Assembly: GCA_047611865.1 (NCBI GenBank)
Contig: JBLFWS010000015.1
Coordinates: 1-34,786, forward strand
Direction: 5' to 3'
Origin: Chlamydiales bacterium
Lineage (GTDB): Bacteria > Chlamydiota > Chlamydiia > Chlamydiales > JBDQID01
Length of the DNA: 34,786 nucleotides
Position 1 is the stretch's first letter; every line of letters begins with the position of its first letter. The position numbers and the translations under genes were made by a program. The notes under the pieces were generated by a model, which made no database searches, had not been told where the DNA came from, and saw only the letters and a list, made by a program, of their open reading frames with translations. Positions 3,981-30,144 of this stretch are shown here, in pieces.

Positions 3981-5036
3981 ATGGAGAAGATAGTTCTTAC
4001 AGCTCGGTTTAGCCTGGTTCGTAAAGTATTATTTTTATTATCTCTTGTTTTGCCGGTGAATTATGCGAATGCTCAAAATTATAGGGCTTTATCTGCTAAT
4101 GAAGGCCATGCCGAAGTAACTGAACTTCGCTATAACGAAGTTCAGTTTAAAGTAGCCTTCGACTCTCGAAGCAAGGGTCCTTTGGATCAACAGCTAGCTT
4201 TTAGCCCTTATAAACCCTGGGAAGGGGGTTGTTTGGGTATAGAGCTTGGTATTGTGCAGAATCCAAAGTTTACTGGGCCTGATGACAATTGGGAATTTTC
4301 GCTCCAAAATGGAGACGAGTTCCAAGAAGAAAGTCCCAGTCTACGCCAGACGTTGCAAGAGATCAGTAAATGGTCGAGCAATCATCCTGGTCATCACGTT
4401 GTCACTATACATATAGCTATCAAAGGCAAGAAAATTATAGGAGATGACAAGCTTTTCTGTGAGAAGTTTGATGATGTTCTTGCTAATGAGCTTGGAATTG
4501 AGAAAATTTTCACCCCCGCCTATCTTCAAAGAGATGCCTCTTCGCTTCTTTCTGCTGTCCAGCAATACGGTTGGCCTACCCTTGAAGAGCTTCGTGGAAA
4601 CTTTATAGTTGTGCTAACGGGCGATGATTCTAACCGACTCGTTTCATTACGACGGATGGTATATACTTATAATGAGCCATATAGAAGGTTGGCCTTTGTA
4701 GATATTGATCATCGAGAAGTTAAGCGTTTCTCTAAGAATGTAAGTGATATTGACAATCCCGGTTACCGCGAAGGCTCCAGAGTTTTCTTGAATATCAAAT
4801 TTGGGCACGGGGATTGGATCAGGCTTGCTGATGGAGCAAGAAAGCTTGGTCTAGTCACACGCTTGTGGAAAGTGAATACTCGAAATGATTGGAACCTGGC
4901 AAAACAGGCTAATGTAAATCTGATTGCAACAGACATGGTCCATGATAGTCAATGGACGGCACTTACCACACCTGTTGATGATTTTAGAGATGACATTGAG
5001 ATGGAAGAGGCTGTTGTTATTGAAACCAATGGCTAA
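3981..5036 (+). CDS. Secreted PI-PLC-like (PLC-like phosphodiesterase fold) protein, catalytic motifs degenerate
   Basis: Signal peptide ending 'YANA'. Motifs 'LRYNEVQ', 'WSSNHPGHHVVTI', 'GWPTLEELRGNFIVVLTG' and 'VNLIATD'. Confidence 0.75.
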   Translation: MEKIVLTARFSLVRKVLFLLSLVLPVNYANAQNYRALSANEGHAEVTELRYNEVQFKVAFDSRSKGPLDQQLAFSPYKPWEGGCLGIELGIVQNPKFTGPDDNWEFSLQNGDEFQEESPSLRQTLQEISKWSSNHPGHHVVTIHIAIKGKKIIGDDKLFCEKFDDVLANELGIEKIFTPAYLQRDASSLLSAVQQYGWPTLEELRGNFIVVLTGDDSNRLVSLRRMVYTYNEPYRRLAFVDIDHREVKRFSKNVSDIDNPGYREGSRVFLNIKFGHGDWIRLADGARKLGLVTRLWKVNTRNDWNLAKQANVNLIATDMVHDSQWTALTTPVDDFRDDIEMEEAVVIETNG

Positions 5037-7435: not shown

Positions 7436-8875
7436 ATGAGAAAATTTGATGTGGCAGTAATAGGTGGAGGCCCTGGTGGTTACGTAGCAGCAATACGTGC
7501 TGCTCAGAAAGGACTGACAGTCGCTTTGGTAGAAGCTGGAGACCTCGGGGGAACCTGTCTGAATAGAGGGTGTATCCCAACAAAAGCTTGGTTGGCAAAT
7601 GTTGAGGTCTTGAAGAAAGTAAGGGACGCAGCAGATTTTGGAATTATTACTGGAGAAGTATCTTTTGACTTCTCTCGAATGGTAAAGCGTACGGATTCCA
7701 TCGTAGGACGTATTCGAAAAGGCCTTGAGGGACTAATATCATCAAATAAAATTGAAGTGATACAAGGTTACGGAAAACTGGTTTCTGCAAATGAAATTAA
7801 GGTCACAGGAAAAGATAATGAGATATTGTATGCAGAGAATATAATTCTTGCTACGGGATCTGAGCCAAGAGAAATTACGGCATTTCCTTTTGACCATGAG
7901 CGCATTCGTTGTTCCACATCGATTTTAGCTTTGAAAGAATTGCCCAAAAAACTTGTCATTGTGGGTGGGGGAGTAATTGGTTGTGAATTTGCCTCTTTAT
8001 ATCATGACTTAGGCGTAGAAGTTATTATCCTTGAAATGCTCCCTAAATTGATTATGAATGAGGGGGATAAAGTTTCTGATGCACTCGACAACGCTTTCAA
8101 AAAACGAGGTATAGGTATACGTACCGAAGTTGCTGTTCAAGCAATAGAAAGAACGGATGCCGGAGTTTTAGTGAAAGTTGCAGGGGGAGAATCGATTTCT
8201 GCAGATATGGCTTTGGTTGCTGTGGGGAGGAAGTTTAACACTGAGAACCTGGGCTTGGAAAAAGCTGGCGTTGTGATCAGAGACAACGGAACGATCCCTG
8301 TCGATGAATATATGAAGACAAACGTTGCGGGAATTTTTGCCATAGGGGATATTACCGGGAAATTTTTACTTGCCCACGTAGCTTCGCATCAAGGTTTGGT
8401 GGCTGCAGATAATATATTAGGAAAGAAGAGCAAGTTACATTACAAAGCGGTGCCTTCTGTGATTTTTACACGTCCTGAAATTGGCACTGTAGGGATGACT
8501 CTGGAAAAAGCTCTTAGTGAAGGATATCCGGCCACGGTGTCAGGCTTCCCTTTTCAAGTTTTGGGCAAATCCCAAGCCTCTCTTGAGACGGAAGGTTTTG
8601 TCCAGATAGTCTCAGATAAATCTACAGGGCAGCTGCTAGGGGCTCAAGTGGTAGGGCATGAGGCAGCGACACTAATTGCAGAAATGACACTGGCAATTAA
8701 TAACGAACTTACAGTGGAGTGTGTCATAGAAACCATTCATGCCCACCCCACAGTTGCCGAAGCGTGGTTGGAGGCAGCCCTTATCGCCGAAGATACACCT
8801 TTACATTTTCCTCCGACTAAAAAGACTAAAGTTCAAGCAAGGAAGAAGCAGCATGTTGAAGCAAGAACTGTTTGA
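7436..8875 (+). CDS. lpdA: Dihydrolipoyl dehydrogenase
   Basis: GGGPGGY FAD-binding motif, GGTCLNRGCIP redox disulfide, GGGVIGCE and HAHPTVAE. Confidence 0.97.
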   Translation: MRKFDVAVIGGGPGGYVAAIRAAQKGLTVALVEAGDLGGTCLNRGCIPTKAWLANVEVLKKVRDAADFGIITGEVSFDFSRMVKRTDSIVGRIRKGLEGLISSNKIEVIQGYGKLVSANEIKVTGKDNEILYAENIILATGSEPREITAFPFDHERIRCSTSILALKELPKKLVIVGGGVIGCEFASLYHDLGVEVIILEMLPKLIMNEGDKVSDALDNAFKKRGIGIRTEVAVQAIERTDAGVLVKVAGGESISADMALVAVGRKFNTENLGLEKAGVVIRDNGTIPVDEYMKTNVAGIFAIGDITGKFLLAHVASHQGLVAADNILGKKSKLHYKAVPSVIFTRPEIGTVGMTLEKALSEGYPATVSGFPFQVLGKSQASLETEGFVQIVSDKSTGQLLGAQVVGHEAATLIAEMTLAINNELTVECVIETIHAHPTVAEAWLEAALIAEDTPLHFPPTKKTKVQARKKQHVEARTV

Positions 8876-10200: not shown

Positions 10201-11565
10201 TCAAGAATCGCTTTTTTGGGTCTCTGATCGTTTCTTATGGATTTTTTTTCGAAGGGGATCGATTAATTTTTCTCGTAGTCCATCTTGAAGAAGTTGATCA
10301 AAGTAATCGTTTGCCAACTTCTCAATCTTTTCAATGTCTTTAGGGTTCGTATTGTCCATGGGAAATGCCTTGTCCAGATCAAGCTGAAGGCGCATGTATG
10401 CAATATTGTGGTTTTTAGATAGCAAGTTGAGTTGTTTTTCTACAGTATCATCCATCACTTCGAAATAGTTGTTAACAAGGGGGGGGATCCATTGGAGGAG
10501 ACCCCATTTGCTGGAGTTTTTGTCTGATATAGGTTCAGAGCGAATTTGTCCTGTTCCAATAGAAAGGATGAATATTTTACGTTTTTCTAGATGGCGTTTT
10601 TGGATACTTTCCAGGTAAGCCCATTCGGCTGGGTTGTTAGCAATTAAGCCTCCATCAATAAAATTATGATGAATTGAGGGGAATGTACAATCAGCTAGGC
10701 CTTTTGAAGGGAAGTAATAAGGAGCGGCAGTTGTGGCTCGCGCTACGTCGGCTATGCGGTATGTCTGCTCGTCTTCTTCAGTCTCCTTTCCTTGTGGAAC
10801 ATCGAGAGCATGTTTGTCTACACGAGAAAAGTGGGTGAAGAGATAATCTTCCTGTTGTTCCTCATCGAAGCTTGTAATGACCAGGTCGGTAATTGCCTCG
10901 TTTAGTTTTGAATCCCCAAATTTTTCGTTGAAAACTCGTTCTATTCCTGAGTCACTGTATTTGGGGCCTATAAGACCAAAAAGGCCGCTTGCGGCTTCCC
11001 AGGAACTGCGATAAAAAATCTCTTTACCGTGGGATTTGTATAGATCTACAAGGTCGGAGGCGGAGTCTTGTGCTGATTTTGGATTTGTTGCGGAAGCTTT
11101 GCTTAATCCTAATGCCAGTATACCTCCGGTAGAAGACCCTGCTAAGCAATCAAAAGCTTCTGACACTTGCCCTTCAATCTCTTGTTCAAGACGGCTGAGA
11201 ATGGTTGCAGGAATGATTCCTCTCATTCCTCCTCCATCGATGCTGAGAATGATATAAGGGTCTAGGTTTTCTTCTTCATCCAAAGGAGTTTGGTCAAACC
11301 TTGGAAGATGAGGAATCTCATGAGGATTTTGTAGAGGGCGTACTTTAACTTTGGGCAGAGGCTTTGTTGTTTCTTTAGGGTGTAAGGGGATATCGAGAAG
11401 ACGACCTGGAGGTTCTTCTTGACTTTGGCCTCTGATTATTGGAAGAGCAATACTTAATCTTTGTATATCTTTGGGGCTGTATTCAGGGCCTTTTTCTTTG
11501 TTTGTCTGGATATGGTGGGCTTCAGGGGAAAAACTTTGATGGATGGCGGATGTATTTAAAGTCAT
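10201..11565 (-). CDS. Patatin-like phospholipase with long Pro-rich N-terminal extension
   Basis: DGGGMRG oxyanion motif, GSSTG nucleophile elbow, and IDGGLIANNP with the catalytic Asp. Confidence 0.92.
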   Translation of the reverse strand: MTLNTSAIHQSFSPEAHHIQTNKEKGPEYSPKDIQRLSIALPIIRGQSQEEPPGRLLDIPLHPKETTKPLPKVKVRPLQNPHEIPHLPRFDQTPLDEEENLDPYIILSIDGGGMRGIIPATILSRLEQEIEGQVSEAFDCLAGSSTGGILALGLSKASATNPKSAQDSASDLVDLYKSHGKEIFYRSSWEAASGLFGLIGPKYSDSGIERVFNEKFGDSKLNEAITDLVITSFDEEQQEDYLFTHFSRVDKHALDVPQGKETEEDEQTYRIADVARATTAAPYYFPSKGLADCTFPSIHHNFIDGGLIANNPAEWAYLESIQKRHLEKRKIFILSIGTGQIRSEPISDKNSSKWGLLQWIPPLVNNYFEVMDDTVEKQLNLLSKNHNIAYMRLQLDLDKAFPMDNTNPKDIEKIEKLANDYFDQLLQDGLREKLIDPLRKKIHKKRSETQKSDS

Positions 11566-11849: not shown

Positions 11850-12860
11850 GTGAGGATACAAATGACCATAGAAAAACTGTCCTTTTTGGATTTAATGCAA
11901 GAATTTGACGAAGAGCTTAGTGGTGCTTCCCAGAGAGCTCCTCAGGGTAACACGGAAGATGAACTTTTAAGGGATTTACCTCTTTCCGATGCTGTGGATA
12001 ATGAGATATTGATGCATCGTGATAGTCATTTCGGAGGGAAGTTCAGTATAATGCTGGATTATTATGAGAGTGAAGGAAAGGGAACAGATCCTGAGATAAA
12101 ACTCAGCCGTATTCATCAGTTAATGGAGATGGAGCAGCAGCTAGGGAAGAATCTTGCACCTGCCATGTTGACAGGTCCTGAGGCGGAAGAAGTGGGTAGA
12201 GCAAGAGAAGCTTACAAACAGCTAAGGTCTATTTATGAAATTGAAAATCTACAAAGCCCTATTCCTCGTCTAATTTCTGACTTGATCTTAACGGAGGATG
12301 AAGAAGCAGAAAAAGAAGTTGATGCAGTAGTACAAGCAGGTCCTGATATTGTACCTTCACTAATTAGTCTTCTTATGAAAGATGAATACCTTAATCCTCT
12401 ATTTCCTGGTTATGGTTTCGCTCCAATATTAGCAGCTGAATGCCTTGGGAAGATTGGTGATGAAAGCTCTATCAGATCACTTTTTGAGGTTATAGGTAAG
12501 GATTCAGAAGAAATTGAAATGGCTGCTATTGATGCCCTTAGAAATATTGGCGATCCAGCGAAGACTTTTCTTATTCAGGTTCTCGAGGGGCGCCCTTTCA
12601 CTGCAGATAATCGTAATGCGGGTATGGCTCTAGGCCTTGGGTTTATTGGGGATGAAGAAGTTGCGAGTACTTGCTTTGAGCAACTTAAAGTATGGGAAGG
12701 AGAAGAGAATCAAACTTTCCTGGGATTTCTCGTCTTATCTTGTGTGGGATTGCAAAGTGAGTTGCGCGATAGCTTTAAAGTTTGGGCGGAAAGCAGGCCC
12801 TTTTCGAGTGACTTGTCATTTGAATTTGAAGCTGTATTCTCCGATTGGAAAGGAGAGTAG
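11850..12860 (+). CDS. HEAT-repeat (PBS lyase-like) protein, chlamydia-type
   Basis: 'LAAECLGKIGD' and 'AAIDALRNIGDPA' helical repeats; N-terminal 'LMHRDSHFGGKF'. Start may be ATG 11862. Confidence 0.8.
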   Translation: MRIQMTIEKLSFLDLMQEFDEELSGASQRAPQGNTEDELLRDLPLSDAVDNEILMHRDSHFGGKFSIMLDYYESEGKGTDPEIKLSRIHQLMEMEQQLGKNLAPAMLTGPEAEEVGRAREAYKQLRSIYEIENLQSPIPRLISDLILTEDEEAEKEVDAVVQAGPDIVPSLISLLMKDEYLNPLFPGYGFAPILAAECLGKIGDESSIRSLFEVIGKDSEEIEMAAIDALRNIGDPAKTFLIQVLEGRPFTADNRNAGMALGLGFIGDEEVASTCFEQLKVWEGEENQTFLGFLVLSCVGLQSELRDSFKVWAESRPFSSDLSFEFEAVFSDWKGE

Positions 12861-14540: not shown

Positions 14541-15569
14541 ATGTCAAATTTATCTATCGGCCTTATACTCAGTCTCAAGCGTTCAATAAACTTTTTGTTT
14601 ATTGTGGGCATACTTCTTCCGCTTCTTTCATCCTGTGGTTCTTCAAAGATTGTGGTACATGATGTTGAAGAAAAAGAAGCGAATGAGATCATAGTATTTT
14701 TGTCTACTAGGGGTATCGAGGCTGGAAAAGCTACTCCTGAGTCTACTGGTGGAGGTGGTGGAACCAAGATTGCGGTTTATAATATTGTTGTAGACCAAGC
14801 TGAATGGGTTAATGCAATGCGCCACCTTGATCGAGAGGGTTTGCCGCGTAGAAAAGGGACAACTTTATTAAAACTCTTTGGTACTGCGGGGCTTGTGCCT
14901 TCTGAACAAGAGGAAAAAATTCGTTTTCGTGCGGGCAAAGAAGAAGAGCTTGCAAATACGATTAGAAAAATTGACGGGATTATTGATGCGGATGTTCAGC
15001 TTTCATTACCTGATGACATAGCTTTAACGCCAGGAATGGTGAAAGAGACTTCTACAGCTTCTGTGTATGTTAAACACCAAGGAGTCCTTGACGACCCTAA
15101 CTCCCACCTGGTTACTAAAATCAAAAGATGGATAGCAAGTAGTATTCCAGGACTTGATTTTGAAAATGTTACGGTAATTGCAGATCGTGCTCGAGCTAGT
15201 TATGACAGAGTGGGTGAGGGTGAGAGTTTTGCGAAAGAAGAGCAAAAGGAATATGTAAAAACGTGGGGTGTAGTTCTTGCAAAGGAGTCTGTTTCCCATT
15301 TTCAAATGATCTTTTTCTCTTTTGGTGGGTTGATATTATTGTTTCTTAGTACCATGGGGTGGCTCTTTTGGAAAATATCTCCTTTAATTAAGCAGTTTGG
15401 AGGTATGCCGGCCTTTTTTACTACCGAGCCTTTTCGCCTTGATGGAAGTATAGGTTCAGGAATAGCTGAAGAAGGTGACTCTGTTGAAGGTGCTGAAAAT
15501 AAAGAAGTTGACGACGATGATGATGACGATGATGACGATGATGAAGATGATGACGAGGACAAGGACTAG
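14541..15569 (+). CDS. sctJ: T3SS inner-membrane ring lipoprotein SctJ (CdsJ)
   Basis: Lipobox LLSSC; 'EKEANEIIVFL', 'GLVPSEQEEKIR', 'IDGIIDADV' and 'TASVYVKH'; C-terminal TM and acidic tail. Confidence 0.95.
   Translation: MSNLSIGLILSLKRSINFLFIVGILLPLLSSCGSSKIVVHDVEEKEANEIIVFLSTRGIEAGKATPESTGGGGGTKIAVYNIVVDQAEWVNAMRHLDREGLPRRKGTTLLKLFGTAGLVPSEQEEKIRFRAGKEEELANTIRKIDGIIDADVQLSLPDDIALTPGMVKETSTASVYVKHQGVLDDPNSHLVTKIKRWIASSIPGLDFENVTVIADRARASYDRVGEGESFAKEEQKEYVKTWGVVLAKESVSHFQMIFFSFGGLILLFLSTMGWLFWKISPLIKQFGGMPAFFTTEPFRLDGSIGSGIAEEGDSVEGAENKEVDDDDDDDDDDDEDDDEDKD
15510..15566 (+). repeat. GAY trinucleotide tract encoding poly-Asp tail of SctJ
   Basis: Encodes D11-E-DDD-E-D-K-D immediately before the stop codon. 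Confidence 0.9.
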
Positions 15570-15596
15570 GTCGACCTGTTGAGAGGGATTAGATAA

Positions 15597-16445
15597 GTGA
15601 CTTTTAAAAGCTGGGCAGTGCTTGAAAGCCTGTTACGTAGCCACCACGAAAATAATATAGAACTCTTTAGTAAGTTTCTCCCTGAAGAAGCTCTACAGAA
15701 TTTTTCTAACCTTCCTGTAGATACTGCTGTCCATTCGAATCTGTTGTCTAGTGCAGAGGAAAGTCTTTCTTCTATGCACTATTCGTGGCTTTTGGGAGCT
15801 GTAAAAAAAATTCCTTCTGAGGCTTATAATTTTTATCTTTCAGCTCTTCCTGAAATCCAAGCCGAAGTGATAAGCACAGCATTGAATAAAAATATCGATA
15901 AAGTGAATTTATCCAGGTTTGGTCAAGCCTATTTATTACATTATTTCCAACAAAACTTTTTGGATGAAAAGGAAATTTTACCTGTTCAATGTCTCCCTAT
16001 TTCAGATTTTCACAGTCTATTGAAAATGGAGAAACGCAGGTTGATTCAGTTGATGGGATACTTGGGTTTATGGGATCTTGCCATAAGATTAAAAGAGCTG
16101 AATCATGGAGGACTCTCTCAAAGTGTGGAGAAAGTCCTGTCATTTAAGAAGAAAGAATATTTAAATATTTGTTTACAGGAAGACGATATCGTATCATTAT
16201 CGACCATTGAGATCGAAAAATGGGATGGTGACAAAAGAAACTTAGAGTACATGTTACATCAAAGGGGGGTTGAAAGGTTAGGGTATGCCCTTTCAGGTCA
16301 ACACAAAGGGTTTATTTGGCATCTTTGTCATAAGCTTGATACTGGAAGAGCCACAGTGCTGCTGAAGTATCATTCTGAAGAACAGTTGCCGGAATCACCA
16401 GTTTTAACCTCTCGACTTTTGAATTTGGTTGAATTCCTGGGATAA
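15597..16445 (+). CDS. sctK: T3SS protein between sctJ and sctL (SctK/CT560-like)
   Basis: Position in the operon; 'MHYSWL', 'LGLWDLA' and 'HKLDTGR' resemble chlamydial homologues. Confidence 0.7.
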   Translation: MTFKSWAVLESLLRSHHENNIELFSKFLPEEALQNFSNLPVDTAVHSNLLSSAEESLSSMHYSWLLGAVKKIPSEAYNFYLSALPEIQAEVISTALNKNIDKVNLSRFGQAYLLHYFQQNFLDEKEILPVQCLPISDFHSLLKMEKRRLIQLMGYLGLWDLAIRLKELNHGGLSQSVEKVLSFKKKEYLNICLQEDDIVSLSTIEIEKWDGDKRNLEYMLHQRGVERLGYALSGQHKGFIWHLCHKLDTGRATVLLKYHSEEQLPESPVLTSRLLNLVEFLG

Positions 16446-17096
16446 TTGAGTAAACAAGGCAGTCAAGTGAAATTTTTCTCACTAATAGATAAAAGCAAGA
16501 GTCTTCACGTAGCACCAGGTACTAAAGTGATTCCTGCTCATGACTTTGCTGCATTGCAAGATGCTGAAGGTATTTTGGGAGTGGCGCGTCAGGACGCAGT
16601 AGAGTACAGAAAGCAAGTGAAAAAGGAATGCGAGGAATTGAAAGCTGAGGCCAAAGAGGCAGGCTTTAATGAGGGTTTGGAGCAGTGGGCAGTTAAGCTT
16701 TTTGAATTTGAAGAGAGTGTTCAATCGATCCGAGAAGAAACTAAAAAAGTGATCATTCCTTTAGCTCTCAAAGCAGCCAAAAAGATAGTCGGTCGTCAGA
16801 TAGAGCTGAATCCAGAAACAGTCGTTGAAATTGTTGCGAGTGCTTTGAAATCTGTTTCTCACCATAAAAAAGTGGTGATTTATGTGAATAAGCAGGATTT
16901 GGAGATTCTTACAGAAAAGAAAGGGCGCTTGAAAGAAGTGCTGGATACCGTAGAGTCGCTATCGATACAAGATCGTGAAGATATAGACCCTCTAGGTTGT
17001 GTGATTGAAACGGAGGGCGGTATCATTAACGCACAGATAGAAAATCAGTGGCGTGCCTTGGAAAACGCTTTTCAGAGTTTGATGAAGCAAGAATAA
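16446..17096 (+). CDS. sctL: T3SS stator SctL (HrpE/YscL/FliH family)
   Basis: 'EAKEAGFNEG' (AxxxGxxxG), 'GCVIETEGGIINAQIENQW'; TTG start abuts the sctK stop. Confidence 0.93.
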   Translation: MSKQGSQVKFFSLIDKSKSLHVAPGTKVIPAHDFAALQDAEGILGVARQDAVEYRKQVKKECEELKAEAKEAGFNEGLEQWAVKLFEFEESVQSIREETKKVIIPLALKAAKKIVGRQIELNPETVVEIVASALKSVSHHKKVVIYVNKQDLEILTEKKGRLKEVLDTVESLSIQDREDIDPLGCVIETEGGIINAQIENQWRALENAFQSLMKQE

Positions 17097-17106
17097 TAGG
17101 GAATAG

Positions 17107-18018
17107 GTGATGATTAGGGGAAAATTAATAGCTAGGTCGAGCTTTTATTTATATTTGTTCTTTAGCATGTTTGTGATGTTTAGTGGTAATAGCTATTGTC
17201 AGGAAACAAATCCTGGGGAGACGGTAGACACAAGGATTCGTACTCGGAGTAAGGCGGCTGATGTTTCAGAGCCCTCGCAGATCAATAGGGTACGTGCAAT
17301 AGCAGCTCCTGAGGAAGACACACCTGGTGCTGGCCTCTTGAAGGGCAATGCTCCCAATCTGATTACTCAAACTATTGCATTGACACTTGTGGCTTTGATG
17401 CCATTTGTGATTATGCTTCTCACCTCTTTTATCAAGATTGTCATTGTTCTGTCGCTTTTGCGTAGTGCTTTGGGCGCTCAACAGGCGCCTCCCAACCAGG
17501 TGATAAACGGGGTGGCACTTTTGTTAAGTGTGTACATCATGTATCCTACGGGAGTGAAAATGTATAAAGCTGCCGAGCCCGTTATGAATATGAGAGCTGT
17601 TCCGGATGAATTTGCTTCGGCAGAGACAGCCCAATATGTTATAGACTTCGTGGATAAAGCCAAAGAGCCTTTCCGTGATTTCATGATTAGAAATAGTGAT
17701 GCCAAGCACCACAAAAGTTTTCATAGGATTGCATATAACCTTTTACCTCCAGATTATAGGGACGCTTTAGGAGTACATGATTTTATTGTAGTTATTCCTT
17801 CTTATATAACTGGGCAGTTGAAAGCAGCTTTTGAAATAGGTGTATTAATTTATATACCCTTTTTTGTAATCGATTTGGTAACGTCGAATATTTTATTGGC
17901 GATGGGGATGATGATGTTATCCCCTGTAACGATATCTATGCCACTGAAGCTTTTTCTTTTGGTGATGCTGGATGGATGGACACTGCTTGTGCAAGGTCTT
18001 GTAGGAACTTTTGTATAG
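17107..18018 (+). CDS. sctR: T3SS export apparatus SctR
   Basis: 'TSFIKIVIVLSLLRSALGAQQAPPNQV' and 'LLAMGMMMLSPVTISMPLKL..DGW'. Confidence 0.97.
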   Translation: MMIRGKLIARSSFYLYLFFSMFVMFSGNSYCQETNPGETVDTRIRTRSKAADVSEPSQINRVRAIAAPEEDTPGAGLLKGNAPNLITQTIALTLVALMPFVIMLLTSFIKIVIVLSLLRSALGAQQAPPNQVINGVALLLSVYIMYPTGVKMYKAAEPVMNMRAVPDEFASAETAQYVIDFVDKAKEPFRDFMIRNSDAKHHKSFHRIAYNLLPPDYRDALGVHDFIVVIPSYITGQLKAAFEIGVLIYIPFFVIDLVTSNILLAMGMMMLSPVTISMPLKLFLLVMLDGWTLLVQGLVGTFV

Positions 18019-18051
18019 ATCTAACCATTTCCTTGTAGGGGGAAGCTCCCG

Positions 18052-18318
18052 ATGATGCACACACACATAGTTCAGTTAGCTTATAAAGGATTATTACTGA
18101 TATTGATTCTTTCAGGTCCTCCAATTTTGGTAAGCATGTTTTTTGGATTAACAGTTGCGATTTTTCAGGCTGCTACGCAGATTCAAGAACAAACTCTTTC
18201 ATTTACCATTAAATTGTTAGCCGTCGTTTTGACTCTTATGGCTTTTGGTGGTTGGTTGGGTGCTCAGATCCTGATGTTTGCACGGGAAATCTTTGTAAAC
18301 TTCCCAAGATGGGCGTAA
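18052..18318 (+). CDS. sctS: T3SS export apparatus SctS
   Basis: 'FQAATQIQEQTLSFTIKL'. Confidence 0.97.
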   Translation: MMHTHIVQLAYKGLLLILILSGPPILVSMFFGLTVAIFQAATQIQEQTLSFTIKLLAVVLTLMAFGGWLGAQILMFAREIFVNFPRWA

Positions 18319-18321
18319 GAG

Positions 18322-19221
18322 ATGTTGGCAGCAGCCCTTGAGCCATCGGGAGAGGGAACATATCTCAAGTTTTTTTTAGATACTGCCACTGAAAGTGATG
18401 ACCCTTCTCATTTCGTTATATTGTTTTTGATGGGTATGATGCGTTTGTTACCGATATTGGCTATCACGCCATTTTTTGGTGCAAGGATACTGCCACATCC
18501 GGTGAAAGCAGCTATGGGGATTACCCTATACCTGATCCTAATGCCACATATCCTTTTGACCACCAGCACGACCATGACAGTAAACTTGACCTTGTTTACC
18601 TATGGTATCAAGGAATTGTTTATTGGAAGCCTGATGGGAATTCTTGCTTCGGTACCCTTTTTTATTGCTGAAACAGCTGGAATATATATTGATCACCAGA
18701 GGGGTGGTTCGAGTTTGATGGTTCAGGATCCGCACCTTCAGAACCAAGATTCGCCTTTGGGAATTATCTGGAACTATATTCTTATAGTGACTTTTTATGT
18801 TCTGGATGGTCAGTTCATATTTATTGAAGCGATTATACGATCCTACACTCTCGTTCCTATTGATGCCTGGTTTAGTAATATCTTTTTTGAAGATGACTCT
18901 ATGTTCTGGGAGCAAATAATGGGTATTATGGCTTACGTAATGAGGGTAGGGATAAAGATTGGGTCACCAGCTCTATTGACTATTTTAATGACTGAAGTTT
19001 TTCTTGGTATTGCTAATAGACTCGCTCCAAATGTGATGATCACTTTTTTGGGGATGCCTTTGAAATCACTCTTTGGATTGGGTATTATTTGCCTTGGGTG
19101 GGGCTATATCACAAATCAGATGAAGTACGAGATGATGACCTGGCTAATTAAGCTGCAGGAAATGGTTGAAATGTTTGGATATGGTTTTCGTCCAGGAGAA
19201 GGGGCGGTACCCTGGCAGTAA
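18322..19221 (+). CDS. sctT: T3SS export apparatus SctT
   Basis: 'AGIYIDHQRG' and 'LGIANRLAPNVMITFLGMPLKS'. Confidence 0.95.
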   Translation: MLAAALEPSGEGTYLKFFLDTATESDDPSHFVILFLMGMMRLLPILAITPFFGARILPHPVKAAMGITLYLILMPHILLTTSTTMTVNLTLFTYGIKELFIGSLMGILASVPFFIAETAGIYIDHQRGGSSLMVQDPHLQNQDSPLGIIWNYILIVTFYVLDGQFIFIEAIIRSYTLVPIDAWFSNIFFEDDSMFWEQIMGIMAYVMRVGIKIGSPALLTILMTEVFLGIANRLAPNVMITFLGMPLKSLFGLGIICLGWGYITNQMKYEMMTWLIKLQEMVEMFGYGFRPGEGAVPWQ

Positions 19222-21428: not shown

Positions 21429-23492
21429 TTAATTTTTTGGAACATCTATCTTGTGAATCAGAAGAACTGAAGCCTCACTTTTTTCACCAATTGTGATAGG
21501 AATTTCAAAAAAGATGCTGTCCACAAAACAGGCATTATTTTCTTGGCAATAGTAGATCACGGCTTCGAGCTCAATTTTCCCTTCTTTAAATTCATCCCCT
21601 ACTTTGAAAGGGATACTTACATTTTGCTCTTCGAGAAGCAGTCCTGTTTTATCGTTTGATAATAGAGAGAGACCTTTAGAAGTAATATCCAAAACATGCC
21701 ATTTACTTAGTGGTCCTTCGATGTAGTGGTAGTCTTGGGGGAGTTCTATTTGGAGAGAAATGACTCCTTCCGATCCTGGGGAAACCCTTAGCTCTGATGA
21801 TGTGACGACACGTGTCCGTACTGGGTCTGTCAGGCGAGCATTTTCTTCGGTTTTTGGTTTAGGAATATTATTCATCACTTGGAGGGTGGAGACTTGATTA
21901 TTTTTTAAGTTAATCAATCGGATGAAATGATTATTTGTGTCGGCTACATAAAGTTTTTGGTTTTCATCGTCAAGAGCAAAGCCAGATGGTTCGGAAAATT
22001 CAGTTTCAAGTCCTATGCCATCGAGGTAGCCTGACTTTCCTGAGCCGACCCATTTTTCGATCGTGTTATCTTCAGGATTTAGGAGTTTTAAACGATGGTT
22101 GTAAGTGTCTGCTACGATAATTCGTTTTTTCTCTTTCCACCAAACGACCCCAAGCGCATGTTGTAGCTTTGCGCGATCTCCTTGGCCGTCGATATCTCCA
22201 TATGAAAATAGGTTGTAGGGGTTACTATTGTCTCCACCGACGAGAGTTTTGGAGTGAAGATTTTGTAGGTCAATAGAACGAACACTGCTGCTTTCACTGT
22301 CCGCAACAAACATCACCCCATCACCTATACTTAGACCAGAAGGCTGTGCCCAGGCAGCCTTTAGGGGATTATGGCTATTGAAGTTTTGTTCAGCACCATA
22401 GCCACTGAAAACTTGCATGATATCAGTGGAGAAATTATATGCCCAAATTTGATGGGTGCCAGCCATAGCCACATAAAGAAGCTCGTCGGAAAGGACCAAG
22501 TCCCATGGGGAGCTTATTTCTTGTTCTTTCCCATGTCGGCCACCCTGATAATCCCGGCCCTGGATGCCAGTACCAATAAGTGTGTGGACTCGATGTTGTG
22601 ATAAATCAACCAATCGGACGGCGTGATTTTCTGTATCTGCAACGTAGAGTTTGTTGTCATGATAAGCTAGTCCCTGGGTTCTGTTAAACTGTGCTTCAGC
22701 ATAAGAGCCATCATTTAATCCCGGAATTCCAGAGCCGATAAGATCAATGAGCTGTCCCTCGAGGTCCGTAATTAATATCCGGTTTTGATTTGAATCACTG
22801 ATAAATAATCGTTTGCCTTCTTGGTCCAGAGCCAATTTTCCAGGGAAGCGAATTGGCGAGGTGGGGACATTCTTTTCCTTCTCAAGAACAATATCCAATG
22901 GGGTGTTGTTAAGTTCAGAGGAAGAGTAAAATTCTAATGCCGCGGCAATAAAATGGTCGAGGTTATCCCGCTGGCCTTCTCCTGAAAAGATAGTTAGAAG
23001 ATTTCCCTTCGGACCAATTACGGCAAGGGAGGGCCAACTTCGGATACTCAAAGAGTTCCAAAGAAATAGTTCGATGTCGTTGACGACAGGGTGAGTGATT
23101 TCATAGCGAATGATTGCTTGTCGGATATTTTCGGAATCTTTTTCATTGTCAAATTTTGCGGAATGGACACCTACAAAAGCAACGGGGTCGTGCTCGAATT
23201 TTTTTTCTAAAAAAGCCAAATCGGGTAGTATGTGGATGCAGTTTATACAGCAGTATGTCCAAAAATCCAATACGGTAATTTTACCCTTTAGTTCTCTTTC
23301 AAAGCTCAGAGGGGCTGAATTAAACCAATCCTGTTGTTTTCTAAAGTCCGGAGTTTTTAAATCAAAAGATAATGGATCGACTCTTTGGATATGCGATTTC
23401 ATTTGATCTAATTTTTCTGGATCATAGTCTGCAAAAGTAGGAAGGAAAAGAAGCGTCAAAAGGAGGCTAGACAAACGTATTAGGGAAATCAA
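21429..23492 (-). CDS. Secreted thioredoxin-like + NHL beta-propeller protein (NHLRC2/SOQ1-like)
   Basis: Signal peptide; DFWTYCCINC; 'GVHSAKFDNEKD'; multiple 'YVADT.NH' NHL repeats; C-terminal 'YYCQENNAC'. TTG start after GGAG. Confidence 0.9.
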   Translation of the reverse strand: MISLIRLSSLLLTLLFLPTFADYDPEKLDQMKSHIQRVDPLSFDLKTPDFRKQQDWFNSAPLSFERELKGKITVLDFWTYCCINCIHILPDLAFLEKKFEHDPVAFVGVHSAKFDNEKDSENIRQAIIRYEITHPVVNDIELFLWNSLSIRSWPSLAVIGPKGNLLTIFSGEGQRDNLDHFIAAALEFYSSSELNNTPLDIVLEKEKNVPTSPIRFPGKLALDQEGKRLFISDSNQNRILITDLEGQLIDLIGSGIPGLNDGSYAEAQFNRTQGLAYHDNKLYVADTENHAVRLVDLSQHRVHTLIGTGIQGRDYQGGRHGKEQEISSPWDLVLSDELLYVAMAGTHQIWAYNFSTDIMQVFSGYGAEQNFNSHNPLKAAWAQPSGLSIGDGVMFVADSESSSVRSIDLQNLHSKTLVGGDNSNPYNLFSYGDIDGQGDRAKLQHALGVVWWKEKKRIIVADTYNHRLKLLNPEDNTIEKWVGSGKSGYLDGIGLETEFSEPSGFALDDENQKLYVADTNNHFIRLINLKNNQVSTLQVMNNIPKPKTEENARLTDPVRTRVVTSSELRVSPGSEGVISLQIELPQDYHYIEGPLSKWHVLDITSKGLSLLSNDKTGLLLEEQNVSIPFKVGDEFKEGKIELEAVIYYCQENNACFVDSIFFEIPITIGEKSEASVLLIHKIDVPKN

Positions 23493-23667: not shown

Positions 23668-23797
23668 TTGCTTTTTTACCTATTTTTTAAAAGTTTATAT
23701 CAAAAATAGAAAGAATCTTGTTGGCATGGAAATAACTCTTCTTCTAGGATGCTAAAAATGGTCTTGAAATATGTAAGTACTTTTATTCAGGAGGTTT

Positions 23798-24202
23798 ATG
23801 ATGTCAGGTCCTATTGAGAATATGCCCGTTAATACTAATATTGAAAATACGGGGAATACATCGAATGAAATTCCTCCCGTAAGTAATTCCGAAGAAAGGG
23901 TTTCAGAGCTAGCTCAAATGGCAGTTAAGCCAAGTGAAAACCCAATCTTAAATCCAGCAAGTACTAAAAGGGAAAAGGAAAGATGTTACGTTTCCACTTG
24001 TAAGAAGCGAATAACGATTGTTAGTAGGCATGAATGTAATGGTTGCAATGAGGTTTTGGGAAAAGTTGTAGCTTATTGTAGTAAGCATAGATTGGCGAGC
24101 GATCACGACTGTAGCTTTGACTACAGAAAGGCTCACCAGGAGAAATTGAGAAAAGAGAATCCTCTTGTTGTTGCTAGCAAAAACCCGGGATGGGATTTTT
24201 AA
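23798..24202 (+). CDS. Eukaryote-like AN1-type zinc-finger protein
   Basis: C-x4-C..C-x2-C..YCSKHR-x3-DHDC-SFDY..LRKENPLVVASK. Strong RBS AGGAGG; low-complexity N-terminus. Confidence 0.9.
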   Translation: MMSGPIENMPVNTNIENTGNTSNEIPPVSNSEERVSELAQMAVKPSENPILNPASTKREKERCYVSTCKKRITIVSRHECNGCNEVLGKVVAYCSKHRLASDHDCSFDYRKAHQEKLRKENPLVVASKNPGWDF

Positions 24203-24249: not shown

Positions 24250-25353
24250 TCAATAATTCTCATCGTCAGATGAGCGAGGTAGCCATACTCTAAAATCTGC
24301 AGTATTTTTTGTTAAGTTGTAGGTGGCTTCGGTTTCAAGTTCTAGCTTAACCTTCTTTTCAGGGTTTTCCATGTTTATCAGCCCCATTCTCGTGCGGGCG
24401 CTTGCAATGGTATCACCGGTGGTATTGAGTTCCCATATGGGGGAATTTAGGTTTCGTGTGTCTAAAAATTCAGGGGACAGTTCTGCATCAATCCCGGTGA
24501 GAGCTTGGGGATGGCTTTTTAAAAAGTTGTGAATAATGAAGCTGCCTTTGTTAAATCTATTCTTACTATCGAATAGCGGAATTCCACAAAATGGCTCCAG
24601 TGAGGCTTGTTGCATTACATGTGATAAGGTTTCAAACAATTTTGGAGTAGATTTGACACTTTTATAGAGATCAGAAGGCATGGTCTTATTCATGAATGTC
24701 TCTTCGATCTCAAGGTCTCGAATGGATCGACGAATTTTGTCGATTCTTTTTTTAAGGTTGAATATTTTTCCTTTGCGAACGTTTTTTCTAGAGAGAGACT
24801 TTAGAAGTGTTGATAAGCGTTCTTCCTTTTCTGCGATTAAGTTTTTTAATTCCCTTTTTTCAACTAATTCAGCATCGGAAGGATACTGTATATCATTGAT
24901 TTTTACATATGGAACTCTTTCCAAGTCTCTTATAAATGCGGAAGGAAGACGAAAATCTTGATCTTCAAAAGAGAAGGAACTTGTGCGGGAATCAGGGTGT
25001 AAAAGGGCGGCATTTCTATCGAAAATGGCTCTATGTGTTCTGACTAGTTGGGACTCAGAGCTGTTACTAATAATTTCGGATATGCTGCTGTTTTGGAATC
25101 GTAGAATACTCAAACATAGAATTGTGATGCTTATCGATGCGATTGCCAATGAGCAAATTGTATAGGAAGCAAGTGCTGAGGATGAGTAGGCTAATAGGGT
25201 AGCAAAGCTTGCGGAAACAATAGCTAAAGTCTTAAGAGCAAGGGTATTTGTATTATAAATTAATTTAATCGTTGGGCTGTTTCGATGAGGTCGCTCGAAA
25301 AGAGGAGGTGCTGCTTCAGAAATTGGGAAATGGTTTCTGTCTACTATACTCAT
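24250..25353 (-). CDS. Hypothetical Inc-like membrane protein with coiled coil
   Basis: About 45-aa bilobed hydrophobic segment near the N-terminus; coiled-coil 'ELKNLIAEKEERL..KIRRSIRDLE'. Confidence 0.7.
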   Translation of the reverse strand: MSIVDRNHFPISEAAPPLFERPHRNSPTIKLIYNTNTLALKTLAIVSASFATLLAYSSSALASYTICSLAIASISITILCLSILRFQNSSISEIISNSSESQLVRTHRAIFDRNAALLHPDSRTSSFSFEDQDFRLPSAFIRDLERVPYVKINDIQYPSDAELVEKRELKNLIAEKEERLSTLLKSLSRKNVRKGKIFNLKKRIDKIRRSIRDLEIEETFMNKTMPSDLYKSVKSTPKLFETLSHVMQQASLEPFCGIPLFDSKNRFNKGSFIIHNFLKSHPQALTGIDAELSPEFLDTRNLNSPIWELNTTGDTIASARTRMGLINMENPEKKVKLELETEATYNLTKNTADFRVWLPRSSDDENY

Positions 25354-29137: not shown

Positions 29138-30144
29138 ATCTGACTACTGATGCTATCAAGTTGTTGTAAAAGAGCTTTTAAGACTTGTTCTCGGGATATC
29201 TCACTAGCATTTTCAGGGTGATGAAAGCAGGTGGCTTTTTCACTTAAAGGCTGCCATTCTTCTAATAGAGTTTCTCCAAAAAGGGTAACCTGGGGTTTTC
29301 CCATAGCGGCGGCAATGTGCATGATACCTCCGTCACCAATAAAGATAAGGTCGGAAAGGTCGAGGAGGGTGACGAATGTTTCAATATCATCAGAAGAGAT
29401 GGCTACAGAGGGGGCAAATAGTTGTTTTGAGAGTTTTTTGGCAATCTCTAGATCTTGAGCTAGGCAAGAGATTGCGATTCTTACGGGGTGAACGCGGTGT
29501 AAACGATTCAAAATATTTTTGTAAAATTCGATCCCTGGGTTACTTGAAGCTCTGTTGTAGGAAACTGAAATGAGAATTAAAGGAACATTTGTAGATAAAG
29601 GGGAAAGTTTTTGGCATACTATCTTTTCTTTGTTCTTTAAGACAGAGCTGGGGATTTTAATAGAGGGGTAAAGATGTTTAGGAACTTCTTTAAGGCTCGG
29701 ATCGAGGAGTTGCAGGGTTTTTAGGGATTGGTGGAGAATACGAGCTTTGCTATCGGAATACGGGACTGGGTTGTTTATCAGTGAGCGGTGCCAAGAGTTG
29801 TCAACAGTGGCGATTCGTTGTTGTGCTCCGAGGAAGTAAAGAAAAAAGTTGATGAGTTTCATTGGAGAAGTTTTAGCGGAAATCGCGAGATCAAAATTTT
29901 TGGAGCGATGTAAGTAGGCGCTACTAAGGACCGAAAGATATTTGTTGCCAGAAGGGAAGACGACGACTTCATCGGCTTTTGGAAGTAATGGGAGTATTGC
30001 TGCGTTGCTTTTATCGCAAAATAAGGTAATAGATGCTTGGGGAGCCTTTTCTCTCAAATAAAGAAGTAGAGGCATGGCGCAGATCATATCACCGAGGCCG
30101 TTCCTTCGGACGAGGGCAATGTTATTGACGTTTGTTAATGACAT
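29134..30144 (-). CDS. Glycosyltransferase family 9 (heptosyltransferase-like)
   Basis: 'GLGDMIC.MP' and 'IGDGGIMHIAAAMGKPQVTLFG'. Confidence 0.9.
   Translation of the reverse strand: MSLTNVNNIALVRRNGLGDMICAMPLLLYLREKAPQASITLFCDKSNAAILPLLPKADEVVVFPSGNKYLSVLSSAYLHRSKNFDLAISAKTSPMKLINFFLYFLGAQQRIATVDNSWHRSLINNPVPYSDSKARILHQSLKTLQLLDPSLKEVPKHLYPSIKIPSSVLKNKEKIVCQKLSPLSTNVPLILISVSYNRASSNPGIEFYKNILNRLHRVHPVRIAISCLAQDLEIAKKLSKQLFAPSVAISSDDIETFVTLLDLSDLIFIGDGGIMHIAAAMGKPQVTLFGETLLEEWQPLSEKATCFHHPENASEISREQVLKALLQQLDSISSQI

Follow-up and report, generated by a model that had tools for sequence, protein, structure and literature searches.

ZFAND5 (ZNF216) and ZFAND6 (AWP1) of human and mouse carry an A20 zinc finger, which in ZFAND5 brings ubiquitylated substrate, and a C-terminal AN1 zinc finger followed by a C-terminal region (CTR) with the core K-[IL]-R-K-E-N-P-x-V-V-A-x-K, while the plant stress-associated proteins (SAPs, A20/AN1), which usually carry A20 too, have a C-terminal AN1 finger with the same kind of tail. 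The AN1 finger of ZFAND5 is reported to dock on Rpt5 at the boundary between the regulatory particle and the core particle of the proteasome, with the CTR reaching Rpt1 (contacted by N202 and P203) and Rpn1 (K209 lying at its Z site), and in the same account stimulation of peptidase activity needs AN1 and the CTR, not A20, and a 19-residue CTR peptide alone activates (bioRxiv 10.1101/2023.05.09.540094). The AN1/CTR fragment by itself is described as a degron that works without ubiquitin, binding to the proteasome and activating it (bioRxiv 10.64898/2026.06.05.730379). Here we describe a bacterial gene whose product is essentially such a ZFAND5-like AN1/CTR fragment behind a disordered N-terminus. 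The gene occupies positions 23798-24202 (+ strand, stop codon 24200-24202) of contig JBLFWS010000015.1 from an uncultured environmental Chlamydiales bacterium (assembly GCA_047611865.1), and this contig, analysed over its whole length of 34,786 nucleotides, is referred to below as the window.

The protein is composed of three parts, namely a disordered N-terminus of about 56 aa, a single AN1 finger and a CTR of the ZFAND5/6 type. The finger (residues 63-105, positions 23984-24112, +) was recognized by the Pfam profile zf-AN1 (PF01428), which matches residues 63-109 over profile positions 1-39 of 40 with 31.5 bits against a cut-off of 27.9 (E 1.9e-7), and a six-frame search of the genome with the same profile gives 32 bits at 23984-24124; both the open reading frame (ORF) and its AN1 finger are confirmed. 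Eight zinc ligands are predicted in the order C-C-C-C-C-H-H-C (C63, C68, C80, C83, C94, H97, H103 and C105), all of them at positions invariant in three orthologues. Their spacing is unusual, with a CX4C first pair, also present in many of the top library hits, a CX2C second pair where ZFAND5 has C-R169-C, and X10 in place of the X4 of ZFAND5, that is, six extra residues after C83. The atypical segment, delimited by gaps of 1 and 6 in the HMMER alignment to ZFAND5, comprises residues 81-93 (24038-24076, +) and contains a helix at residues 81-87 in the AlphaFold2 (AF2) model, and positions 82-95 are without change across the three orthologues.

The AF2 model, for which a 150-row alignment of the best library relatives was the input, has predicted local distance difference test values of 94-96 at residues 55-125 and of 56-67 at residues 1-50. 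In a Foldseek comparison with the PDB, ranks 1-10 are all AN1 domains, and Arabidopsis AN1 structures are among the rows. Rank 1 is 7qxw_v, ZFAND5 on the Z+D-state proteasome, with a template modelling score of 0.72 (normalized on the target) and a root-mean-square deviation of 2.2 A over 67 columns; the Foldseek E-values are all at least 0.015, as expected for so small a domain. Searches of the PDB sequences with phmmer likewise place ZFAND5 first, as chains of proteasome complexes (9bui, E 7.3e-8; 7qxw, E 4.6e-7), and the alignment extends through the tail to K128 (K209 in ZFAND5). Human ZFAND5 on the 26S proteasome is the best solved relative by both sequence and fold. NCBIfam has no family for the protein, nor for the products of the two neighbouring genes.

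The CTR (residues 106-134, 24113-24199, +) was delimited from the phmmer alignment, the ZFAND5 literature and a mapping of ZFAND5 numbering on P0050, whose last 213 residues match exactly the residues named in the paper. Its core, KLRKENPLVVASK at residues 116-128, is identical to KIRKENPVVVAEK of ZFAND5 (197-209) at 10 of 13 positions. The three contact residues N202, P203 and K209 align to N121, P122 and K128, which are conserved in at least 90% of the rows of the 150-row alignment. The chlamydial protein is distinguished from ZFAND5/6 by being bacterial, by a disordered N-terminus free of Cys in place of A20, by its CX4C first pair, by a CX2C second pair where ZFAND5/6 have CXC, by the six-residue insert, and by the end NPGWDF in place of the terminal K-I-x-[KR]-I. 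The three orthologues are 63-66% identical overall, yet 56 of the 78 columns at residues 57-134 are invariant, including the insert and NPGWD, so that the differences from ZFAND5 are maintained features and not decay. A first-pass annotation made from the sequence alone had pointed to the AN1 Cys/His pattern with the tail HDCSFDYRK...LRKENPLVVASK, to the likeness of this tail to those of ZFAND5/6 and SAPs, and to an N-terminus devoid of A20; the eight ligands and the quoted tail are indeed present, the profile check with PF01428 that it recommended is positive, and the ZFAND5 alignment running through the tail bears out the second point. As to the third, PF01754 (A20) has no match in the protein, and residues 1-62 contain neither Cys nor His, so that a second finger there is impossible. 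No A20 match was found genome-wide either, a result that carries no weight since the control genomes also gave none.

The N-terminal region (residues 1-56, 23798-23965, +) was examined as a candidate secretion signal and linker from the AF2 model, its composition and the orthologue alignment. It is rich in Asn, Ser, Thr and Pro and modelled with low confidence. At residues 2-26, Ser, Thr, Asn, Pro, Gln and Gly make up 64%, which is the 99.4th percentile of the 1983 long ORFs of this genome, and Leu, Lys and Arg are absent. Invariant columns of the three-sequence alignment are concentrated at its beginning: they number 7 of 13 for residues 2-14, but 7 of 42 for residues 15-56. Disorder, composition and conservation thus fit a secretion signal, without being diagnostic of one.

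A machinery that could use such a signal is encoded in the window, where Pfam and NCBIfam identified the type III secretion system (T3SS) genes sctJ, sctL, sctR, sctS (18052-18318) and sctT (18322-19221), together with an unknown gene, at 14541-19221 (+), 4.6 kb upstream of the AN1 gene. The NCBIfam injectisome models for SctJ (TIGR02544), SctL (NF004968) and SctR (NF009438/TIGR01102) score over their cut-offs and the flagellar models score below theirs on these genes. The system is confirmed to be of the non-flagellar, injectisome type, and the earlier description of the organism as a T3SS-bearing bacterium holds. The position of the AN1 gene near this cluster is in itself no evidence that its product is secreted. 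The unknown gene, at 15597-16445 (+) between sctJ and sctL, encodes 282 aa with no Pfam or NCBIfam family and may be a lineage-specific T3SS component. A search for proteasome/HslV subunits (PF00227), which matched in 10 of 14 control genomes, found none in this 95.5%-complete genome. The genome does contain, outside the window, an F-box-like domain (C86:11899-12000, -, 40.7 bits) and two neighbouring OTU-like matches (C25:27774-28205, +, 37.9 bits, and 29574-29870, +, 22.4 bits).

Close relatives of the protein are few. A word-index search of the protein library returned three proteins, the window's own and two metagenomic ones 65% and 63% identical to it, and an exhaustive search with a profile of this clade, covering 1.84 billion representatives, brought the number of close relatives to only three, all metagenomic, which with the window protein make up a four-member clade. 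Scores in the profile search are 264.6 bits for P0002 and 117.8 for the 66-aa fragment P0004, and then fall to 61.5. In the whole library there are 1109 proteins at E<=0.001 (12 at <=1e-10 and one at <=1e-30), for which reason the match to AN1 proteins and ZFAND5 is far beyond chance. Among the best 150 of these 1109, the 148 proteins outside the clade score 46.8-61.5 bits; the 150-row alignment (A2), which includes 146 of them, has zf-AN1 in 149 rows and zf-A20 as well in 44, and in almost all of the best 150 the finger is C-terminal and followed by a tail of the K-x-x-K-I kind. One of ten relatives looked up, P0010, is labelled as a foraminifer. The nearest Atlas clusters (scores 0.91-0.93), which serve as leads only, consist of AN1-only proteins about 126 aa long with the labels Eukaryota or Nucleocytoviricota; one of these clusters has 426 members, 83% of them viral, and SAP-type clusters are also among the nearest.

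Protists and Nucleocytoviricota have AN1-only proteins (about 70-140 aa) built on the same plan, in which a variable N-terminus leads to a single AN1 finger and then to a tail with K-x-x-K-I at its end; they differ from the window clade by lacking the insert and the NPGWDF end. The viral contigs, scanned with three queries (A1, P0012 and P0055), yielded no relative, and the metagenome contigs scanned with alignment A4 gave no match. The sole match of the clade alignment among genome contigs was rejected as an antisense chance ORF inside a gene of 447 aa. P0006, a 128-aa AN1 protein encoded at 8001-8387 (+) of a 16-kb metagenome contig (L018), has the CX2C pair and the six-residue insert of the window clade, retains ...ADKIERI as its canonical end and no longer has the last Cys ligand; its N-terminus is hydrophobic and signal-like. 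This contig also carries genes for AcrB, HlyD, Dus, DUF4423 and AhpC-PDZ proteins, so P0006 is bacterial.

AN1 fingers also occur in other chlamydiae. Of 400 genomes of the phylum searched in six frames, 15 have a match at E<=0.001 and 13 have one over the cut-off; these matches are spread over 10 of 212 genera and no fewer than seven family codes. None of 401 genomes of a control phylum (that of an unrelated metagenome-assembled genome labelled 'delta proteobacterium') had a match over the cut-off, two weaker ones each containing an in-frame stop. These other chlamydial proteins follow the same plan, with 12-62 variable residues ahead of one AN1 finger and its tail, as in MBX3718099.1 from Candidatus Acheromyda pituitae, but are highly diverse, and mostly have a canonical finger without the insert of the window clade. 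One of them, from a genome in the same order as that of the window, has exact counterparts at NCBI under the name 'AN1-type zinc finger domain-containing protein'; their sources are Parachlamydiales and Candidatus Acheromyda pituitae (Chlamydiota), which also fixes the phylum to which the window's genome belongs. G001, the one further genome in the family that includes the window's, encodes a different AN1 protein of 111 aa (L003, 1351-1686, +), with a canonical finger and the tail ...NNPQVVCSKLEKI, between genes that, as read from their sequences, are FAD-dependent dehydrogenase-like and secreted papain-like, a context unlike that of the window. In 8 of 16 chlamydial AN1 proteins (ORFs near position 1500 of the loci L004, L005, L007, L009, L010, L012, L014 and L015) the ZFAND-type tail is absent and a Gly/Asn-rich end takes its place. 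Among the 14 whose tails were examined, seven end in ...HAY, LAY, AAY, ESY, FAH or TAH, and L015 ends in ...HAF, a conserved aromatic or His C-terminus. Judging from the end ...TNPGGGNQFAH of L007, the NPGWDF of the window protein may be related to them.

Scored with the profile of the window clade, the other chlamydial AN1 proteins reach 43.1 bits at best, and the G001 copy 30.5, all below the eukaryote-type AN1 proteins that are the best matches outside the clade; by this measure the closest relatives of the window protein are not the other chlamydial copies, in a comparison that is lopsided, 150 proteins picked as the best from a huge pool being set against 13 chlamydial ones. The first-pass annotation had proposed that the gene was acquired from a host or a giant virus. 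In favour of this proposal are those scores, the eukaryotic and Nucleocytoviricota labels of the nearest Atlas clusters and the 44 of 150 aligned rows that also have A20, and an ultimately eukaryotic or viral source is plausible on the distribution of the family. The phylogeny gives the proposal no such backing. Our tree has 162 rows and 64 columns (P0004, P0038, P0068, P0132, P0153 and L016, which failed the AN1 regular expression, were left out), and 98 of its 155 inner branches are unresolved. The window clade joins P0006, the nearest row outside it and encoded on a bacterial-type contig, with a Shimodaira-Hasegawa-like approximate likelihood ratio test (SH-aLRT) value of 70, within a 15-row AN1-only group (SH-aLRT 92) that includes the protist and Nucleocytoviricota proteins, and no plant-specific affinity of the chlamydial protein is resolved. 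The chlamydial rows need six changes on the free tree, but a tree in which all 17 chlamydial rows form one clade is not rejected by the approximately unbiased (AU) test (p 0.435), and therefore no conclusion is drawn on the number of acquisitions. Spread from bacterium to bacterium may have taken part, and a broad prokaryotic clade of closest homologues, which the annotation had named as evidence against acquisition from a host or virus, is neither recovered nor excluded.

The composition of the gene matches that of the genome. Its GC content is 0.396 against 0.424 +/- 0.027 for the 1983 long ORFs of the same genome, and its GC content at third codon positions 0.343 against 0.389 +/- 0.049, both about one standard deviation or less from the genome mean, and no foreign composition signature was seen in these two measures; therefore any transfer was not recent, and the gene is neither a fresh foreign insert nor an assembly contaminant. 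The 34.8-kb contig that carries it also carries parB, rsmB, queF and lipA besides the T3SS genes. An AGGAGG resembling a Shine-Dalgarno site (23789-23794, +, found by inspection) precedes the first ATG (23798) by 3 nt and the second (23801) by 6 nt. Translation from these gives 134 and 133 aa, respectively, and both versions are on record among public gene calls. Because of its better spacing from AGGAGG, the second ATG is probably the start; the N-termini of the orthologues read MSGPI or MSVPI. A promoter-like TTGGCA, 18 nt, TAGGAT (23721-23750, +), which is a consensus match only, lies in the gap to the divergent upstream gene, and the scan that found it gave 5 promoter-like sites against 2.0 +/- 1.5 in shuffles. 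A terminator-like hairpin was sought at the AN1 gene and none was found.

The gene is solitary. On one side, 305 bp upstream, a divergent gene (21429-23492, -) encodes a 687-aa fusion of a thioredoxin-like domain and an NHL-repeat beta-propeller with a hydrophobic N-terminus, and on the other, 47 bp downstream, a convergent gene (24250-25353, -) encodes a protein of 367 aa with no Pfam or NCBIfam family. In the latter, a short polar N-terminus is followed, at about residues 37-88, by a pair of adjoining hydrophobic stretches. Such a bilobed hydrophobic pattern typifies the inclusion-membrane (Inc) proteins of chlamydiae, a group of T3SS substrates. Searches for the two flanking genes found neither in the genomes G001, G037, G061, G239 and G135, an empty result that shows nothing by itself. 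Weak Pfam matches of the neighbours (ELMO, Cut8 and CEP15-like; E 0.04-0.1) were treated as noise. Other genes of a host-interaction type in the window encode a phosphatidylinositol-specific phospholipase C-like protein (3981-5036, +), a patatin-like phospholipase (10201-11565, -) and a HEAT-repeat protein (11850-12860, +).

Since the protein resembles the AN1/CTR fragment of ZFAND5, we rank first the reading that it is directed to the host, where it would act on the proteasome as an AN1/CTR mimic, and give this reading tentatively, with a little less than even weight. From the gene, its domain, fold and tail similarity, the missing A20 finger, the T3SS and the lack of a bacterial proteasome gene, all of which are observed, we infer export, target and direction of effect as follows. 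The protein would be exported into the eukaryotic host, most likely by the T3SS using its N-terminus; there, its AN1/CTR module would bind the proteasome at the site used by ZFAND5 or close to it, and either opening of the gate and proteolysis would be stimulated independently of ubiquitin or host ZFAND proteins would be competed with. The ZFAND5 match, the retention of the CTR contact residues, the constraint among orthologues, the lack of PF00227 and the occurrence of AN1 over the cut-off in this phylum but in none of the control genomes support such a mimic, and the T3SS, the F-box-like and OTU domains and the Inc-like stretch of the convergent neighbour support a host-directed setting. Several observations weigh against it. 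The Rpt5 contact R169 of ZFAND5 is replaced by N81-G82, the Rpt5 contact D182 aligns to S101, and the six-residue insert lies on the same face as these contacts. NPGWDF stands in place of the terminal IQRI, so that I213, which enters the Rpn1 Z site, has no counterpart. The N-terminal composition only suggests a secretion signal, and P0006 indicates that insert-bearing AN1 proteins are also found in other bacteria. Moreover, the functions of AN1 domains are called 'largely unclear' in a review that names other partners and roles, including p97, Pex6, E3-like activity and NF-kB signalling (PMC11799193). The altered Rpt5 face and terminus are the main grounds for caution, and either retuning to a protist proteasome or a different target would account for them equally well; the contact residues compared here are those of human ZFAND5, which may be the wrong yardstick for the host of this chlamydia.

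That the protein is exported to another host target, such as p97/Cdc48 and its cofactors, Pex6-Pex5, TRAF6/NF-kB-type signalling or an E2/E3 step, is possible though on the unlikely side. Partners of this kind are tabulated for ZFAND1, ZFAND2B, ZFAND6 and plant SAP5 (PMC11799193), and the loss of the Rpt5-contact residues and of the last four residues, with an insert that alters the AN1 surface, would agree with a changed target; against this, the strongest match in both sequence and fold is ZFAND5, including a CTR core for which proteasome activation is the only described role, and the binding of ZFAND1 to p97 is assigned to a ubiquitin-like domain that is absent here (PMC11799193). Unlikely in our view is a small zinc-finger regulator working inside the bacterium, for instance on the ribosome or an AAA+ protease, whose likeness to ZFAND5/6 would reflect common descent only. 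AN1-like fingers do exist in prokaryotes, PF01428 matching Haloferax among the control genomes, P0006 stands on an ordinary bacterial contig, and there are weak matches to an archaeal 'conserved protein' (chain 9qtr_i, E 0.16) and to the ribosome dimerisation factor of P. furiosus (Foldseek ranks 46-47, E about 5). The prokaryotic matches are far weaker than that of ZFAND5 (15.9 against 36.4 bits), however, the conserved CTR core is a motif of eukaryotic proteasome contact, AN1 has no match over the cut-off in the 401 genomes of the other phylum, and its presence in 15 of 400 chlamydial genomes at E<=0.001 does not fit a housekeeping role. A functionless passenger, that is, a decaying fragment of eukaryotic derivation, would explain a small, lineage-restricted gene whose flanking genes were not found in five relatives, but is highly improbable given the intact frame, the Shine-Dalgarno site, the retention of all eight ligands, the invariance of most columns of the AN1/CTR part among otherwise divergent orthologues and a composition that matches the genome. 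Returning to the host-directed mimic, a fuller version of it can be outlined, which we regard as a doubtful conjecture when taken as a whole. Environmental chlamydiae would export an A20-less AN1 family, of which the window clade would mimic the 'proteasome activation degron' of ZFAND5, docking on the host 19S particle without ubiquitin, opening the proteasome and raising the supply of amino acids while being consumed in the act, and thus self-limiting, with the helix insert and NPGWDF retuning it to a protist proteasome.

Our search of the literature, which did not extend to supplementary tables, brought up no publication that deals with AN1 fingers of chlamydiae or with AN1 proteins as bacterial effectors. 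AN1, zinc finger and proteasome have zero occurrences in the main text of Domman et al. 2014 (PMC4209131), whose supplementary tables may list the domain. The F-box, BTB and U-box/RING-like expansions described there are likewise eukaryote-type degradation domains in environmental chlamydiae, but those families act at ubiquitylation, whereas the AN1 protein would act at the proteasome. For ZFAND5 itself, it was only recently reported that the AN1/CTR module alone suffices for binding to the 26S proteasome, for its activation and for degradation by it (bioRxiv 10.1101/2023.05.09.540094; bioRxiv 10.64898/2026.06.05.730379). Already known for the chlamydial proteins is the automatic annotation at NCBI as AN1-type zinc finger; what is new is a ZFAND5/6-like protein that is bacterial, lacks A20 and has an insert and a terminus specific to its clade.

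Intracellular bacteria copy the ubiquitin-tagging enzymes of their hosts, and a copied factor with direct action on the proteasome would, if the reading is true, be a different point of attack. A natural bacterial AN1/CTR module without a ubiquitin-binding finger and with a conserved insert at the face that contacts the ATPases would be a ready-made probe of the mechanism. Going by its sequence features, the AN1 protein is a plausible host-directed factor. If it is one, it would represent a new candidate effector class for chlamydiae, and if the degron-mimic reading is true, it would be the first bacterial direct allosteric activator known for the eukaryotic 26S proteasome.

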